This document shows positions 8,470 to 45,230 of a stretch of DNA of 45,230 nucleotides, in pieces. Each line of letters opens with the position of its first letter. The stretch's first letter is position 1. Position numbers and translations under genes: made by a program. The DNA comes from a virus. Its lineage: Duplodnaviria > Caudoviricetes. The stretch is taken from positions 1 to 45,230 of the IMG/VR virus record IMGVR_UViG_3300029818_000080; one strand, 5' to 3'. Under the pieces are notes generated by a model. It did not search any database. It saw nothing but the letters and a program-made list of their open reading frames with translations, and was not told the origin of the DNA.

Positions 8470-8527
8470 ACAAGTAAAACTTGTATTATCATTACAAGTA
8501 TTACTGGAAAATACAAGTAAAAACTGT
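8470..8527. promoter_or_regulatory. Left operators (OL1-3)
   Basis: ACAAGTAAAACTTGT (8470-8484, dyad), ACAAGTATTACTGGA (8494-8508), ACAAGTAAAAACTGT (8513-8527); the same motif recurs between cI and cro. Confidence 0.85.
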
Positions 8528-8692
8528 AATAATTTCTCGTGAGGTCGATTGACGTTTATTTGAGAGGCTAGGCGCCGGCTTCAACAAGGTGCGGAGTTTC
8601 GATAAATGGATGATATTTGGCTTACATTGAGAATAATGCAGTAGAACTTTGGCTAAGAATGTGACAAATTCTGTCAACTAATAGGAGGGTGT

Positions 8693-8971
8693 ATGGAAGT
8701 AACAAGTAGTACGCAAGGAATGCAGATTAATATTGCAAGTGGTTCTGTTGGAGTTACCAAGGACGAACCGCAAAAAGCCCAATCAACAAGCCAAACCCAT
8801 ACGGATACCGTATCCATCTCTGAAGAAGCAAAGCGGCTGCTTGACGACGAAGCTAAATCAGCAAGTGAGTTGGATAATGGCGGCGGGACAGAGCCGCCGT
8901 TAATCGGCGCTCAGAGCGACAACGACTCGAGCAAGCTGTTCAACGGCGGTGGCACAGAGCCTCCGAAGTGA
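8693..8971 (+). CDS. Putative peptide precursor with two NGGGTEPP repeats and a FlgM-like motif
   Basis: Strong SD AGGAGG; 92 aa, S/T/Q-rich; DTVSISEEAKRLL; repeats at 8876-8899 and 8942-8965. Confidence 0.8.
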   Translation: MEVTSSTQGMQINIASGSVGVTKDEPQKAQSTSQTHTDTVSISEEAKRLLDDEAKSASELDNGGGTEPPLIGAQSDNDSSKLFNGGGTEPPK

Positions 8972-8978
8972 GGCTAAC

Positions 8979-9488
8979 ATGGAATTGCTAGAATATTTAG
9001 ATAGGGCTATCACGATCACAGCCTTAGTTGCGCTGTGCTTGTCTCTGCTAACCATTAATAAACTGCCTTCAGTTTTTTTTGCTGGATGCGGCTTTCTTCT
9101 GGTGCAGCTGACAAGTTATTTCATGATAGTTTTCGTCCGTGATCTTGGTAAGTTTGTACCTGAACATGCTGATTTAGTTCGCGTCGTTTGGTACTTTGGC
9201 TTTGCCTTTTTTAACTTACTTTATGTTGTGGTGATATATCGAATTCACCGAGCAATGCAGGCGCGGTTTGATTTCGGAGCGAGATTCATATGTAGCAGCA
9301 TGTTCTGTTTGGCAATAATTCAAGTATTGAGGTTTACGGACAGGCACCTGGAAATCAATGTATTAGGTGAGTTTTATAAATATTCCATCCCGGCCATTAA
9401 CGTGGCCTGTGTAACGGTTCTGGTCGGCGGTTTGGTTCTGGCTTCACTGTCAACGAGAGGCTTTACTGGTGTTAGGGAGCTAAGATGA
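8979..9488 (+). CDS. Multi-pass membrane protein (~5 TM)
   Basis: SD GAGG before ATG 8979; about five hydrophobic segments; no soluble domain. Confidence 0.85.
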   Translation: MELLEYLDRAITITALVALCLSLLTINKLPSVFFAGCGFLLVQLTSYFMIVFVRDLGKFVPEHADLVRVVWYFGFAFFNLLYVVVIYRIHRAMQARFDFGARFICSSMFCLAIIQVLRFTDRHLEINVLGEFYKYSIPAINVACVTVLVGGLVLASLSTRGFTGVRELR

Positions 9489-9811
9489 TTATAACTATTT
9501 TTTCATTGGGGCTATTGATACTGTTTTGCTATACATTCGCCACTGTTTTACGCAGCTACAAAAACGAACTCGACGGTAACAGCAGGGCAGCAGCAGCGGA
9601 AAAGGCAATGGCCGCACGATTTATCAAGAATGCAATGTCACAATACACCGCGCGGCACCGTACACCTTCGATGGATGCTTTAACGGAAATGGAAGAACTT
9701 ATATCTGAGTCAGACGATCTCGTTGAGCAATACTGGCAGTTACTTAAGGCCAATCAGACTACTAATAATGATAATGTATCAATGATGCCCATAATGAAAA
9801 AGGCGCTTTAG
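9485..9811 (+). CDS. Small protein with N-terminal TM anchor and helical soluble domain
   Basis: ATGA overlap with upstream gene; MIITIFSLGLLILFCYTFATVL hydrophobic N-terminus. Confidence 0.8.
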   Translation: MIITIFSLGLLILFCYTFATVLRSYKNELDGNSRAAAAEKAMAARFIKNAMSQYTARHRTPSMDALTEMEELISESDDLVEQYWQLLKANQTTNNDNVSMMPIMKKAL

Positions 9812-9822
9812 GCGCCTTTTTT
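9797..9822. terminator. Bidirectional intrinsic terminator overlapping two convergent stop codons
   Basis: AAAAAGGCGC-TTTAG-GCGCCTTTTTT. Confidence 0.75.
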
Positions 9823-10272
9823 CTGAACATCATCTACGGCCGGCGTTTCACTCTCTCCTGGTTCCATCCCATATTCTTCCAGCAGTTTTGTATAAAACAG
9901 ATCGCCTATAATGTTGAGGCTCACATCAGGGCGCTTTACGCCAATCCAACCCATACTAACTGCCAATCTAAAGGCTTTGGTAATTGCAGCTAAGTGTTGG
10001 TTTTTAAATTCTTCTGTTTTTAGTGCATCCCGGACATCAATAGCAGAATCGGCAGACTCAGGACCGACACCGAACTGTAAATAGTTGGGAGTAGTATTCA
10101 GTTCGTTGGCTATTTTTCTCAGACGATTATGCCTCGGGACTGTTTTGCCCGATTCCCACTGCTGCACGCTCTGGCAAGTAACACCAACCAAGTCGCCAAG
10201 CCCTTCCTGACTTAAATCAAGCTGCTCACGTAGCGACTTTATGCGTTGACCAATCAAGTTATTTTCTTCCAT
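9808..10272 (-). CDS. cI: CI-like repressor (XRE HTH), no S24 peptidase domain
   Basis: IGQRIKSLREQLDLSQEGLGDLVGVTCQSVQQWESGKTVP HTH; divergent from cro; start set at ATG 10272 because the longer ORF runs through the operators. Confidence 0.88.
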   Translation of the reverse strand: MEENNLIGQRIKSLREQLDLSQEGLGDLVGVTCQSVQQWESGKTVPRHNRLRKIANELNTTPNYLQFGVGPESADSAIDVRDALKTEEFKNQHLAAITKAFRLAVSMGWIGVKRPDVSLNIIGDLFYTKLLEEYGMEPGESETPAVDDVQKKGA

Positions 10273-10283
10273 TCTCAAATTGT

Positions 10284-10375
10284 ACAAGCGTTTCTTTATG
10301 GTAGCATCACAAGAATAGCTTGTAAAACTAAGTTTTATGATCAAGAATAACTATAGGATACCAAGTTTAACTAGT
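10284..10375. promoter_or_regulatory. Right operators (OR)
   Basis: ACAAGCGTTTCTTTA (10284-10298), ACAAGAATAGCTTGT (10309-10323), weaker TCAAGAATAACTATA (10341-10355), CCAAGTTTAACTAGT (10361-10375). Confidence 0.78.
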
Positions 10376-10386
10376 AAGGCGTTTTA

Positions 10387-10626
10387 ATGACTGAGCATGA
10401 TACCAACACCGCCGGATCACTTCGACAGTTGCTACGACCGTTCTTGCCGCAAGCGAAGTTTGCTGAAAATATTGGGGTAACTCAGCAAACAATTTCGCTT
10501 TGGTTGAAAGCCGGCAAAGTTCCCCCTAACAAAGTAGGGCTCGTGAGCCTGAAAACCGGGTTGCCTAAACACACTCTAAATCCCGATTTCGCGGCCGGTG
10601 ATGTTGGAGTTGAGCAGAATGCTTAG
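10387..10626 (+). CDS. cro: Cro-like regulator
   Basis: QAKFAENIGVTQQTISLWLKAGKVP HTH, LNPD ending; divergent from cI. Confidence 0.88.
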   Translation: MTEHDTNTAGSLRQLLRPFLPQAKFAENIGVTQQTISLWLKAGKVPPNKVGLVSLKTGLPKHTLNPDFAAGDVGVEQNA

Positions 10627-14710: not shown

Positions 14711-14909
14711 ACAGGAAGTGCAATACCACATTCAGGAAGCCATTAACCACCTGCGTAAAGCTGGTGGCATTACGCTGCATGAAGCGCCAAAGGATCCGCA
14801 AACTGAATTTAGGCCGGCAGAGCTTGCGGGCAATGAATTGCTTGTTATTGCTGATCACCTTGAAAACGTTAAGGCCTTTGCTGCTAAACCGATAGTGATG
14901 GGGCCTTGA
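14700..14909 (+). CDS. Hypothetical protein
   Basis: 69 aa; SD AAGG; TGATG overlap with next gene. Confidence 0.7.
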   Translation: MPHKQEVQYHIQEAINHLRKAGGITLHEAPKDPQTEFRPAELAGNELLVIADHLENVKAFAAKPIVMGP

Positions 14910-16105
14910 TGAAAAGCGTAGCACTGGTGATATCTGACGCTGCTATTACACGCCACTCTGCTGATGTGGAAGTGGGTGAGCTGCGCGATCATAAATCTCC
15001 GATTGTGCTGCGCTTTCATAAAGCCCGTGATAAGGGCACCTGGTATCTGGTGCAATACAAACGCAGAGATAAAAAGCGGCACCGTTTAGGTTACTGGCCA
15101 GTGCTGAAGACCAAAGATGTGCAGAGCATTGTGCCTGACATGCTGAAAAAGCTGGGTACCGGTGCTGAGGTGCAAAGCAGCCAGTTTGTAACGGTAGGCC
15201 AGATGCTGCAATGGTATTTAGGCCGGATACAACGCGAAGCGGTTAAAAGTGCCAGCCGGCGTAAAGGGGTGGTTAGTGCGATTAAGCGCCACTTGCTGCC
15301 GCTATTGGGCTCTGTGGCTATTGCTGCACTGGATAAGGCGGTTATAGACGATAAGTTGATGTTACCGCTGCAAGCTGAAGGCCTGCAGCCCTCTACCATT
15401 CGGTTGTACTACTCGGTGCTTAAGCGTGCCTTTGCCAGTGCCAGTGAACTGGGGCTGGTTGCATTAAACCCTATGGCCGGGATGAAGTTTAGGGACCATA
15501 TACAAAAACAGATTATACCCAAGCCGGGCAAGCTGCTGGTAAGTGACGCTGGCCGTGCACAGCACCTGATATCACCACTGCTTCAGCCTGTTAAAGGCTT
15601 GCTGCTGTTTATGCTGATGTTTGCTACCCGTATTGGTGAAACCCGCCAATTACGCTGGGAATATGTGGATTTCGACGCCAGGCAAATAACGATACCCGGC
15701 AAACTAACGAAAACCGGCGCGCCACACATTCTGCCCATTACAGATGATGCAAAACCCATACTGCAAGAGCTGATGCAGCTTTATACGGGCGCTTGGGTGT
15801 TCGGCCAGACTGATTGCCCCAGTGAAAGTGAAGCCGACAAGCTGATCCGCAACGCCAGCAAAGGCAAGTTCAGCGCACACGATTTACGAAAATTCGCCCG
15901 CAGCAGCTGGGCCACGATTGGTATTGATTACTGGGTATCAGAGCGTCTGCTTAACCACAAGCAAAAAGGACTGGATGCCGTGTACATAAAAGCGGATGCA
16001 TTGGACGTTAAACATGCGGCATTAACGCAGTACCACCACTGGTTAAAAGAACGTTTTGCGTGCAGGCACCATGCAGGCATTGAGAATAATCAGGGTGCAG
16101 CGTAA
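14909..16105 (+). CDS. Tyrosine recombinase/integrase (internal, second copy)
   Basis: Arm-binding-like N-terminus; ATRIGE (R), LTKTG (K), HDLRK, LLNHK, AVYIK (Y) all intact. Confidence 0.92.
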   Translation: MKSVALVISDAAITRHSADVEVGELRDHKSPIVLRFHKARDKGTWYLVQYKRRDKKRHRLGYWPVLKTKDVQSIVPDMLKKLGTGAEVQSSQFVTVGQMLQWYLGRIQREAVKSASRRKGVVSAIKRHLLPLLGSVAIAALDKAVIDDKLMLPLQAEGLQPSTIRLYYSVLKRAFASASELGLVALNPMAGMKFRDHIQKQIIPKPGKLLVSDAGRAQHLISPLLQPVKGLLLFMLMFATRIGETRQLRWEYVDFDARQITIPGKLTKTGAPHILPITDDAKPILQELMQLYTGAWVFGQTDCPSESEADKLIRNASKGKFSAHDLRKFARSSWATIGIDYWVSERLLNHKQKGLDAVYIKADALDVKHAALTQYHHWLKERFACRHHAGIENNQGAA

Positions 16106-43095: not shown

Positions 43096-43138
43096 TTGCA
43101 GTTAACTTATCCATCATTTAAGCTGTATAAAAATACAG
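43096..43138 (+). promoter_or_regulatory. sigma70 promoter overlapped by LexA (SOS) box
   Basis: TTGCAG-N17-TAAGCT (43096-43124); CTGTATAAAAATACAG (43123-43138) fits CTGT-N8-ACAG. Confidence 0.85.
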
Positions 43139-43153
43139 TTATATGGTGGGTTT

Positions 43154-43429
43154 GTGTGGTTTATAAATCAGCAAAAGCGCAAGTTAGCGCTGTTAGATAA
43201 AGCCGGCAAGCTGGTAAACGAAGTATGGTTTATTCGCACCCGAAACAACGCAGAAATGCAGTTTATGGCCTGGCGGGTAACGCACCATATACAGGGTAGA
43301 TTTCTGCCTTTCTCATACAACGACAGCTTAAATACCATGCTGCAGGCCATAAAAGATAATGATCTAACCTATAATTGGAGCCCGGTAGAAAACTACTACG
43401 CGTATAAAGAGGTAGATAATGTGCGGTAG
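43154..43429 (+). CDS. SOS-regulated hypothetical protein
   Basis: 91 aa, first ORF after the LexA box, overlaps SRAP start. Confidence 0.65.
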   Translation: MWFINQQKRKLALLDKAGKLVNEVWFIRTRNNAEMQFMAWRVTHHIQGRFLPFSYNDSLNTMLQAIKDNDLTYNWSPVENYYAYKEVDNVR

Positions 43430-43988
43430 GCTAAACGTAACTGATGATCATCTTGTTATAGGGTTAAGTGAGGCGCTTGGTATTAAGCTAAGCATAAAAA
43501 CAAACCATGACCTGCGGCCAACTCAAGAGCTGGCTGCAGTCACGCCAAACGGCCAGCTAAATTGCCGCTGGGGTATTAAGCCGGCATGGTCAGATAAATT
43601 GCTGATCAATGCCCAGGCTGAGAAAATGACTACAAGTAGATTATGGCGGCCGGCGTTTCAACATCAACGTTGTCTAGTGCCGTGCACCGGCTGGTATGAA
43701 TGGCGCACAGAGCAGGACGAACGCAAGCACAAATACCTGTTTACCGGAGCAGATCATAAGCCCCTGTTGATGGCGGCGCTTTACTGGCCAGCCGGTGTGT
43801 ATGACGAGCAACCAACGCTTGTTACGCTAACCACCACACCAAACCAATACGCGGCACAGTATCACCACCGCATGCCGGTAATAATACCAACCGATAACGC
43901 CGACTGGTGGCTAAACGGCAGGGCAGAAGGTTTGGCGCCATTGCTTATGCCACTGCCCGAAAAATCTGTCGTGGCTACAGCAGCTTAG
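43419..43988 (+). CDS. SRAP (YedK/HMCES-like) abasic-site protecting protein
   Basis: N-terminal MCGR, LINAQAE, RCLVPCTGWYEW, HHRMPVI. Confidence 0.93.
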   Translation: MCGRLNVTDDHLVIGLSEALGIKLSIKTNHDLRPTQELAAVTPNGQLNCRWGIKPAWSDKLLINAQAEKMTTSRLWRPAFQHQRCLVPCTGWYEWRTEQDERKHKYLFTGADHKPLLMAALYWPAGVYDEQPTLVTLTTTPNQYAAQYHHRMPVIIPTDNADWWLNGRAEGLAPLLMPLPEKSVVATAA

Positions 43989-43991
43989 ATA

Positions 43992-45230
43992 TTAAACCGC
44001 TTTTAGTCCTTTCTTACCGCTAAAAGCCATCTTACCTGTGGCCGCTTCCTCTATGTGGTTACTCCACCATTCCATCAGCTTGCGCCGGCGCTCAAGATAA
44101 GTTGCCCGGTTGTATGCTGACCGCACTTGGTTTTTGTCCTGGTGCGCAAGCGCTGCCTCAATTACATCATCATCAAAGCCGCGCTCGTTGAGTGTAGTGC
44201 TGGCCAGTGCGCGCAAACCATGTGATACCAGTACGCCTGTATAGCCCATGCGCTGCAATGCCCGGTTAGCTGTTTCAGAATGCGTGGGCAAACCCGGGTT
44301 GCGGTCTGATGCAAAAATATAGGGTGATCTGCCGGTAATTGGCTTAATAAATTCCAACAGGGCCACTGTTTGTGGCGTAAGCGGTACTTGATGTTCTCGT
44401 TTCTGTTTCATGCGTTCACCAGGTATAACCCACAGCATATTATCAAGCTGTATTTCATCCCAACGCGCACCGGCAGCCTCAGACGGTCGCACCATAGTGT
44501 GCAGTTGCCACTCAATCAGGCAGCGTGTCATTATCCGGATCTGCGCATAGCTCAACGCCTTCATCAGCTCAGGCAATTGCTCCGGCTTTATCGTCGGCAT
44601 ATTAGTGGCTTTAGCGCTGGCAAACGCAGCTTTAATTCCGGCGAGCGGATTGTGCTGCAAAATACCGGTGTTAACACACCAGGTCATTAACTCATTTAGG
44701 CGCTGGCAAAGCCGGGTAATCGTTTCGCTTTTTCCTGCTGCTTCCAGCGGTTTTAATTCTTCAATAACCACCGGCGCTGTCAGTTCGCTAACCGGCCAGC
44801 TGCCAAGGGTAGGGAATAAGTGTGCTTCAAACGATCGCTGCACTGTAAATGCGTGGCGCTCGCTGATGCCGGCAAATTTTACCGCAAACCATTTTTTAGC
44901 CACATCCTGAAGTGTTGTGCTGATCTCCCGGCGCCGCTTATCGCTTTGCGCGTCCAGCCACTTTTGCGGATCAATATCCCTGTCTAACAGTTCTCGATAT
45001 TCCGCCCGGGCTTTTCTGGCCACAGCTAAAGACGTTTCAGGGTAGCTACCGATCTTTAAATAATTGGAGTTTTTAACATGCGGTCGATTGTAACGAAACA
45101 ACCAAGACTTGTTTCCGGCAGGTGTGATCCGCAGCTCTAAACCGTCGCCATCATACAGCGAATAAAGCTTATCTTTAGGCTTAGCTGATCGTACTTCCGT
45201 GTCGCTTAATGGTGTTGTTTTTCTTGCCAT
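43992..45230 (-). CDS. int: Prophage integrase, P4/IntA-like tyrosine recombinase
   Basis: LSDTEVRSAKPKDK..LYDGDGL arm-binding domain; VRPSE, MK, HGLRALAST, LAH, AYNR. Confidence 0.96.
   Translation of the reverse strand: MARKTTPLSDTEVRSAKPKDKLYSLYDGDGLELRITPAGNKSWLFRYNRPHVKNSNYLKIGSYPETSLAVARKARAEYRELLDRDIDPQKWLDAQSDKRRREISTTLQDVAKKWFAVKFAGISERHAFTVQRSFEAHLFPTLGSWPVSELTAPVVIEELKPLEAAGKSETITRLCQRLNELMTWCVNTGILQHNPLAGIKAAFASAKATNMPTIKPEQLPELMKALSYAQIRIMTRCLIEWQLHTMVRPSEAAGARWDEIQLDNMLWVIPGERMKQKREHQVPLTPQTVALLEFIKPITGRSPYIFASDRNPGLPTHSETANRALQRMGYTGVLVSHGLRALASTTLNERGFDDDVIEAALAHQDKNQVRSAYNRATYLERRRKLMEWWSNHIEEAATGKMAFSGKKGLKAV

Follow-up and report, generated by a model that had tools for sequence, protein, structure and literature searches.

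A conserved three-gene cassette in a phage immunity region and in bacterial chromosomes that may encode a peptide-sensing system

What do three uncharacterised genes do in the immunity region of a lambdoid phage? The stretch of DNA that we analysed (the window, 45,230 bases) is the record of a temperate phage with a lambdoid layout. Its leftward genes are for recombination and a methylase; its rightward genes include an O-like replication gene, a DnaC-like loader, an integrase, an endolysin, terminase, portal, head, and tape-measure genes. (The integrase, at 14906-16105, is not at the end of the left arm but in the midst of the rightward early genes, 3' of the DnaC-like loader.) The interval that separates the left operon from cI contains three plus-strand genes: gene A (8693..8971), for a predicted peptide precursor of 92 aa; gene B (8979..9488), for a five-helix membrane protein of 169 aa; and gene C (9485..9811), for a single-pass membrane protein of 108 aa. 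All three are convergent on a cI-like gene on the minus strand (9808..10272), which encodes a 154-aa repressor with an XRE HTH (HTH_3) and a helical C-terminal domain. A cro-like HTH gene (10387..10626, plus strand, 79 aa) lies past the repressor. The first-pass annotation had described three co-oriented, tightly coupled genes in the interval between OL and cI, encoding a repeat-peptide protein, a protein with about five transmembrane segments and no soluble domain, and a membrane-anchored protein. This description holds up: B starts 7 nt past the end of A, the start of C overlaps the end of B (ATGA), A has a repeated peptide, B is modelled as five long helices, and C has one N-terminal hydrophobic stretch.

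The surrounding DNA resembles a phage control region. Boxes of the type ACAAG-N5-CT(T/G)T (repeat family D1, no strand assigned) occur at 8470-8484 (ACAAGTAAAACTTGT), at 8513-8527 (ACAAGTAAAAACTGT), and, between cI and cro, at 10309-10323 (ACAAGAATAGCTTGT). These positions fit OL and OR, so we take the first two as putative OL boxes and the third as a putative OR box. The region just 5' of A (8616..8688, plus strand) has a 27-nt imperfect direct repeat (at 8616 and 8648), a TGACA-N5-TGTCA palindrome (8662-8676), and the AGGAGG ribosome site of A (8683-8688). The repeat and the palindrome (8616-8676) are a candidate binding site, possibly for feedback control of the cassette. Promoter-like sites upstream of A show no excess (5, versus 4.7 in shuffles). 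A perfect 10-bp inverted repeat (AAAAAGGCGC/GCGCCTTTTT, 9797..9821, no strand assigned) spans the stop codons of C and cI; judging from its sequence, it is likely to be a bidirectional terminator, and it is absent from the output of a terminator scan. The window's repressor has no Pfam match to the S24 autocleavage domain. At the far end of the window, a near-perfect LexA-type box (CTGTATAAAAATACAG, at 43123) lies 5' of a 91-aa ORF (no PHROG match) and of a 189-aa gene whose product starts with MCGRL and is presumably SRAP-like. This region (43123-45230) could be an SOS-controlled operon and is a potential home for a separate induction factor.

None of A, B, and C of the window has a match above noise in Pfam, PHROGs, NCBIfam, or PADLOC, and B has none in the PDB either. 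B has a family of its own. A phmmer search with B against 1.84 billion representatives of 50%-identity clusters gave 101 matches at E ≤ 0.001, nearly all of them 160-190 aa long. (The named members of B's cluster are from Shewanella algae and Paraglaciecola psychrophila.) In an alignment of 91 sequences (the query and 90 full-length matches, omitting fragments, longer forms, and one false match to a repeat protein), helix 3 has the consensus WYxGFAxxD and a histidine at its end, helix 4 ends in QxxRYxDR, and helix 5 contains Y...IPxIN. The conserved residues are Y72, H90, Q115, D121, R122, Y133, P138, and N141. The AlphaFold model of B (pLDDT 94.7) has five long helices, no soluble domain, and a very short predicted outer loop. 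From hydropathy and the positive-inside rule, we infer that Y72, Q115, R118, D121, R122, and Y133 cluster on the periplasmic face, which would suit a ligand pocket.

The fold does not point to a known family. Foldseek with the model of B found nothing at E 0.001, and the best VIA matches were to designed helical bundles (Z 9.2); the rhodopsin- and GPCR-like matches scored Z 7-8, as common bundles do. Three candidate identities were rejected. An ESM Atlas cluster name suggested MreD (score 0.97, no common Pfam), which no Pfam or NCBIfam match supports; MASE3 matched just 2 of 92 members, at E of about 0.02-0.03, which we attribute to chance; and a membrane peptidase would not fit, as B has no invariant Cys, Ser, or Glu and the window's B has Asn in place of the mid-membrane Asp. 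Word-indexed protein searches returned near-identical proteins only, and scans of viral and metagenome contigs returned no relatives. A tblastn search of phage records with B also had no match, yet this search misses the homologues in ACA phages and C5a that are described below, so the blank means little. Some loci have tandem B genes behind a single precursor, or a B of about 245 aa with an internal duplication (L078, L085, L088, L093, and L131; P0046, P0073, and P0098). These sequences hint at B dimers or two-receptor circuits.

We collected 113 distinct B genes, from the window, three further genomes, and the stronger matches of a family scan (weaker matches were omitted). Linkage was assessed at the 101 loci, the window's among them, that score at least 60 and have sufficient upstream DNA. 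At 80 of these 101 loci, a small ORF with a GxGxxP core ends beside the start of B, while the same rule applied to other genes of these loci gave 1 of 295, so the linkage is far above chance. As for the remaining B loci, five are second copies of tandem B pairs, and about 9 of the 16 others show a variant of the core on inspection by eye. B is followed by a C-type gene (65-230 aa with an N-terminal hydrophobic stretch) at 76 of 101 loci, and at least 25 of 101 have no detected C. The arrangement that the first-pass annotation suggested looking for, with a GxGxxPP ORF upstream of B and linked homologues, is thus seen almost throughout the family.

The cassette is a conserved unit in many marine and freshwater bacteria. 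The B profile matches 62 of 301 Alteromonadaceae genomes, with as many as 12 matches in a genome, and 33 of 401 genomes at the level of the order. At the level of the class it matches the centre genome alone among 400 (one genome was unscored). Many loci are chromosomal and syntenic, for instance beside yebC/yjjX-like, dsbA-like, or blaPER-gst-ABC genes. The A-B-C trio adjoins blaPER-gst-ABC on plasmids (in the three records examined, out of 59 that match) and on a chromosome (L067). The blaPER-gst-ABC block was mobilised from Pararheinheimera (PMC7782503). The "hypothetical" genes that were mobilised along with blaPER on plasmids of Vibrio, Pseudomonas, and Acinetobacter are A-B-C (L003:5577-6635, L002, and L001), with A and C broken in L001. 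Two other sets of loci are unusual. A record titled Phenylobacterium (L004, in G003) has 11 B matches, while the class-level sample has none beyond the centre genome; this bin may be mixed. In genomes of about 2.5 Mb (L159-L177), the cassette is present in two to three tandem repeats, the leader is different and short, and the C-terminal tail of B is encoded over the start of C in a different reading frame.

We then consider what A might be. In the window, A contains NGGGTEPP twice (8876-8899 and 8942-8965), and the two copies differ at 4 of 24 nt, all at third codon positions (as read from the sequences). Among the 80 A proteins, 55 have one copy of the core, 11 have two, 7 have three, 2 have four, and 3 have five (two go uncounted under a stricter pattern), and one locus at the level of the order has more than 10 copies. 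Bacillus phage Phr propeptides also have tandem pheromones (PMC11343458). In many Sec-type precursors, a CxLxPxxC pair lies right before the core (L072-L078, L083, L084, L100, and L101), which suggests, from the sequences, a disulfide-closed loop in the propeptide. When GTDB was scanned for GGGxEPPK followed by a stop, 3 of 22 matches had B downstream and the remainder had none. As to whether the peptide and the membrane protein vary together, core variants do track B similarity, with shared variable positions rising from 1.5 of 6 for distant B pairs to 5.0 of 6 for close pairs, but this is what co-inheritance alone gives, and co-evolution is not implied.

The N-terminus of FlgM is its export signal, and the leader of A in the window (DTVSISEEAKRLL) resembles the FlgM N-termini of the hosts. 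The sole NCBIfam match of the window's A is to FlgM (TIGR03824; E 0.026, residues 15-61 of A), at 15.3 bits against a cut-off of 40.75 and covering only positions 15-66 of the 98 in the profile; Pfam's PF04316 gave no match. With a profile of five host FlgM N-termini, the window's leader scores above all 50 of its shuffles. The same profile beats shuffles for 16 of 28 FlgM-class precursors and 3 of 40 Sec-class precursors, which is partly circular because the class is defined by a motif. No sigma-28 site was found upstream of FlgM-like precursors, while host flgM genes do show one; the idea that sigma-28 controls these precursors gains no support. FlgM itself leaves the cell through the flagellar system and can take cargo with it (PMC3372961, PMC3595227).

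Overall, A has the architecture of a small propeptide with a C-terminal core, with leaders of several kinds. By hydropathy and motif rules alone (not SignalP), 39 of the 80 leaders are Sec-type, 26 are FlgM-like, and 15 are other. By eye, several of the others are FlgM-like variants or of the double-glycine type (L081, L157, and the ACA and C5a phages for the latter). In a quick IQ-TREE tree of the 80 B proteins, the leader class switches at least 2-3 times on strongly supported branches. As the N-terminus of A is Sec-type, FlgM-like, or double-glycine, export is likely to be the conserved requirement, to judge from these sequences.

C is more variable than B. The closest homologue of the window's C is a single protein, 69% identical; in phmmer comparisons, 39 of 84 C proteins form one group and the window's C joins none. 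A search of the ESM Atlas with C gave nothing over 0.9. One C (L080) is fused to an AraC domain (HTH_18, E 6.5e-11). The tails of some C proteins share motifs: N[VI][VI]x[FLM] is present in 15 of 84 (shuffles, mean 0.8 and maximum 5; other proteins, 4 of 225), and a terminal L/F-x-V-V-type tail is found in 8 of 84 (shuffles, mean 0.75 and maximum 4; other proteins, 1 of 225). The window's C fits neither strict motif, and its tail (DNVSMMPIMKKAL) is a mere likeness. We take the first motif to resemble the tails of alphaproteobacterial SspB; a search of papers did not confirm this likeness. The second type resembles the SspB tails of these hosts and of E. coli. For instance, the C of ACA phages ends in RPIFKLVK, and host SspB has endings such as RPSLKVVK. 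The tail of SspB from E. coli is RGGRPALRVVK (PMC8808172). SspB's tail docks on the N-domain of ClpX, and the docking consensus is LKxh (PMC7226468). The SspB domain itself (PF04386) is absent, by Pfam, from the window's C and 23 other C proteins. From these sequences we predict that C is the output of the cassette, either as an anti-repressor or as a ClpX adaptor.

Is the cassette a phage system? At 24 of 98 loci an XRE gene, encoding about 125-175 aa, follows within 700 nt, and at 22 of them it is convergent (a raw count, made with an HTH profile that was itself built from 11 repressors of these loci). Six prophage-like loci have the cassette in the same slot as the window (L074, L075, L076, L077, L079, and L083), with DnaB, SSB, primase, or integrase genes nearby; the evidence is weak at L075, and genes intervene in L074 and L079. 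In Pfam searches of 16 HTH-type proteins, S24 was found in one only, which lies upstream of a cassette (L098) and does not face it. At 74 of the 98 loci there is no XRE gene within 700 nt downstream. With about three quarters of loci lacking an adjacent repressor, the cassette is a bacterial system that phages have likely borrowed. The first-pass idea of a Gram-negative phage system is partly supported: the cassette recurs beside phage repressors and the leaders look export-like, but it is not specific to phages, and a signalling function is a prediction.

A search with the window's CI led to P2-like phages of Pseudoalteromonas (phages of Bordetella and Haemophilus were also among its matches), where the cassette was found through the repressor rather than through B. 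In the two Pseudoalteromonas records examined, proACA1-A and C5a, a 39-aa double-glycine precursor that ends in DNGGGGGGVEPPKLN is accompanied by a homologue of B (E 2e-16) and by a C whose tail is RPIFKLVK or RPVFKLVK, all convergent on the immunity repressor, with one gene in between in proACA1-A and three in C5a. The same B is also in ACA1 and ACA2. (Genes gp5-gp7 are not named in the main text of the ACA paper, PMC10612066.) The C-terminal domain of the window's repressor resembles that of the C5a repressor (E 7e-6) and that of the proACA1-A repressor (E 0.005). The ACA repressor is described as lacking an autoproteolytic domain, with two other SOS routes proposed (PMC10612066). ACA phages encode a separate S24 protein and an antirepressor, which are other candidates for induction routes (PMC10612066). 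In the reverse direction, we examined 10 matches to the repressor's C-terminal domain from outside the training set. Three are near B (one a near-copy of a training gene), one is a second repressor at a training locus, one lies close to the end of a contig and has a C-like gene nearby, one looks like chance, and four are stand-alone repressors, with no B within 1.5 kb, in genomes that hold B elsewhere. These four refute an exclusive pairing of this domain with the cassette. The chromosomes of G092 and G052 also have several copies of a divergent pair of a cI-like gene and a short HTH gene; some of these adjoin the cassette and others stand alone (L099, L098, and L207).

Gene order, linkage, the repeated core, the three types of leader, the five-helix fold, and the short non-cleavable repressors nearby are the basis for reading the cassette as a signalling switch. 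A would be exported and then trimmed to a GxGxxPP peptide; in the window it would leave by the flagellar type III system, given its FlgM-like leader. B would bind the peptide from outside the inner membrane, with the conserved residues of its outer face as the pocket, and would control C. C would bind the C-terminal domain of CI, and either sequester CI at the membrane or hand it to ClpXP. Accumulated peptide might switch C off, so that CI would be stable and lysogeny would be favoured when neighbours that carry the phage are dense; this direction is by analogy to arbitrium only, and the sign may be the reverse. Chromosomal copies would have the same A-B input and other targets. We put the chance that the whole chain holds, from export and trimming of A to the action of C on the repressor in phages, at about even. 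Least secure are the ClpX step, the exit through the flagellum, and the sign of the effect. A more ambitious version may be right, though we would bet against it: that this is an undescribed family of Gram-negative peptide quorum sensing (exported GxGxxPP peptide, kinase-free five-helix receptor, membrane-tethered ClpX adaptor), captured repeatedly by lambdoid and P2-like phages as an equivalent of arbitrium that degrades or sequesters a non-cleavable CI, and here exported through the flagellum by a leader that mimics FlgM, which would tie phage communication to host motility.

Several other readings fit parts of these data. A-B-C might be bacterial signalling that acts on host genes, with its place by cI being just a slot for lysogen-expressed genes. 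Most loci being chromosomal and syntenic, the up to 12 copies per genome, and the unrelated other genes that occupy the slot in ACA and C5a all agree with this. But short repressors that face the cassette are found repeatedly, in lambdoid, P2-like, and non-phage loci, and the window and P2-like repressors have a C-terminal domain in common; we consider it unlikely. It is more unlikely still, in our view, that the peptide acts in the periplasm on the cell that produced it, and reports on Sec, flagellar, or protease activity instead of the density of neighbours. Tandem core copies and clade-specific core variants fit a diffusible and specific signal, and FlgM-like and double-glycine leaders would carry the peptide out of the cell; on the other side, Sec leaders reach the periplasm only, the outer loop of B in the model is very short, and leader type varies by lineage. 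Taking these two readings together with the signalling switch, it is highly probable that A and B are a peptide-sensing pair of some kind.

The cassette could instead protect the lysogen. B is a polytopic membrane protein and the slot is shared with lambda rexAB, and one can imagine superinfection exclusion or abortive infection in which B and C act at the membrane against an incoming phage and A is an inhibitor or trigger in the periplasm. This seems very improbable to us, as the chromosomal paralogues are multi-copy with varied cores and one C is fused to AraC; also, A, B, C, and three homologues have no PADLOC match at E 0.05 (an absence from the library that is compatible with a defence role). 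We give the slimmest chance to a microcin-like toxin A with B and C as membrane immunity proteins. A small glycine-rich ORF, some double-glycine leaders, and a membrane gene directly 3' are what such a system would have, but the conserved part is only 7-9 residues, often in tandem between variable spacers; several precursors are a leader and then a nearly bare core; and we saw no transporter or modifying enzyme beside the cassette in 40 wider loci.

If the signalling switch is real, it would let Gram-negative phages tune lysis versus lysogeny. The cassette is a concrete candidate for this, with short peptides that can be synthesized and with cultured carrier phages (ACA1, ACA2, proACA1-A, and C5a). 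If the role in phages fails, A and B would still be a widespread pair in Alteromonadaceae, an exported-type peptide and a membrane protein that matched nothing in the searched libraries; that a single core should come with three different export leaders is unusual in itself. A literature search on the core motifs and the system found nothing relevant, with most subscription papers outside its coverage.

How does the cassette compare to known systems? Phage-encoded peptide communication is described for phages of the Bacillus group, with cytoplasmic RRNPP receptors (PMC11945551). Like arbitrium (AimP/AimR/AimX) and Rap-Phr, the cassette has a small putative propeptide gene beside its partner in the control region of a temperate phage, tandem cores (PMC11343458), and a predicted effect on lysis versus lysogeny. 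AimR, however, is a cytoplasmic TPR receptor whose peptide is imported by Opp (PMC11945551), while B is a membrane protein made of helices only, with neither a TPR nor a DNA-binding domain; the cassette's hosts are Gram-negative, and bacteria carry most of its copies. (Neither B nor C matched a TPR or HTH family.) Vibriophage VP882, with VqmA(phage) and Qtip, offers a Gram-negative precedent in which a signal leads a small anti-repressor to inactivate CI independently of SOS (PMC11945551). It differs in that the signal is a host small molecule (DPO), the receptor is a cytoplasmic transcription factor, and there is no phage peptide or membrane receptor.

In Agr and ComCDE, an exported peptide is sensed by the multi-pass membrane domain of a sensor kinase. 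B (160-200 aa) has no kinase domain and no match to AgrB-like or sensor families, and the loci listed show no histidine kinase or response regulator within the cassette, in keeping with the early remark that arbitrium and Agr motifs are missing. Nor did we see, by eye, a RiPP enzyme or a peptidase-containing ABC transporter beside the cassette in the 40 wider loci (selected neighbours were also searched against Pfam); a transporter could be encoded farther away. The rexAB genes of lambda are immunity-region genes, one of them for a membrane protein, that are co-transcribed with cI; the cassette is convergent with cI, includes a peptide precursor, and has no family match. Some C proteins resemble SspB in their ClpX-docking-like tails, but C lacks the SspB domain and is anchored in the membrane, and these tails are found in a minority only. 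Similarly, the first 55 or so residues of many A proteins mirror the N-terminus of FlgM up to D-x-V-x-I/L-S, but GxGxxPP cores replace the half that binds sigma-28, and no sigma-28 promoter was found. By analogy, the cassette would have an input side like that of arbitrium and an output side like that of Qtip or SspB. As a family, with a function that is predicted, A-B-C lacks the features that define RRNPP, Agr-type, FlgM, and SspB proteins.
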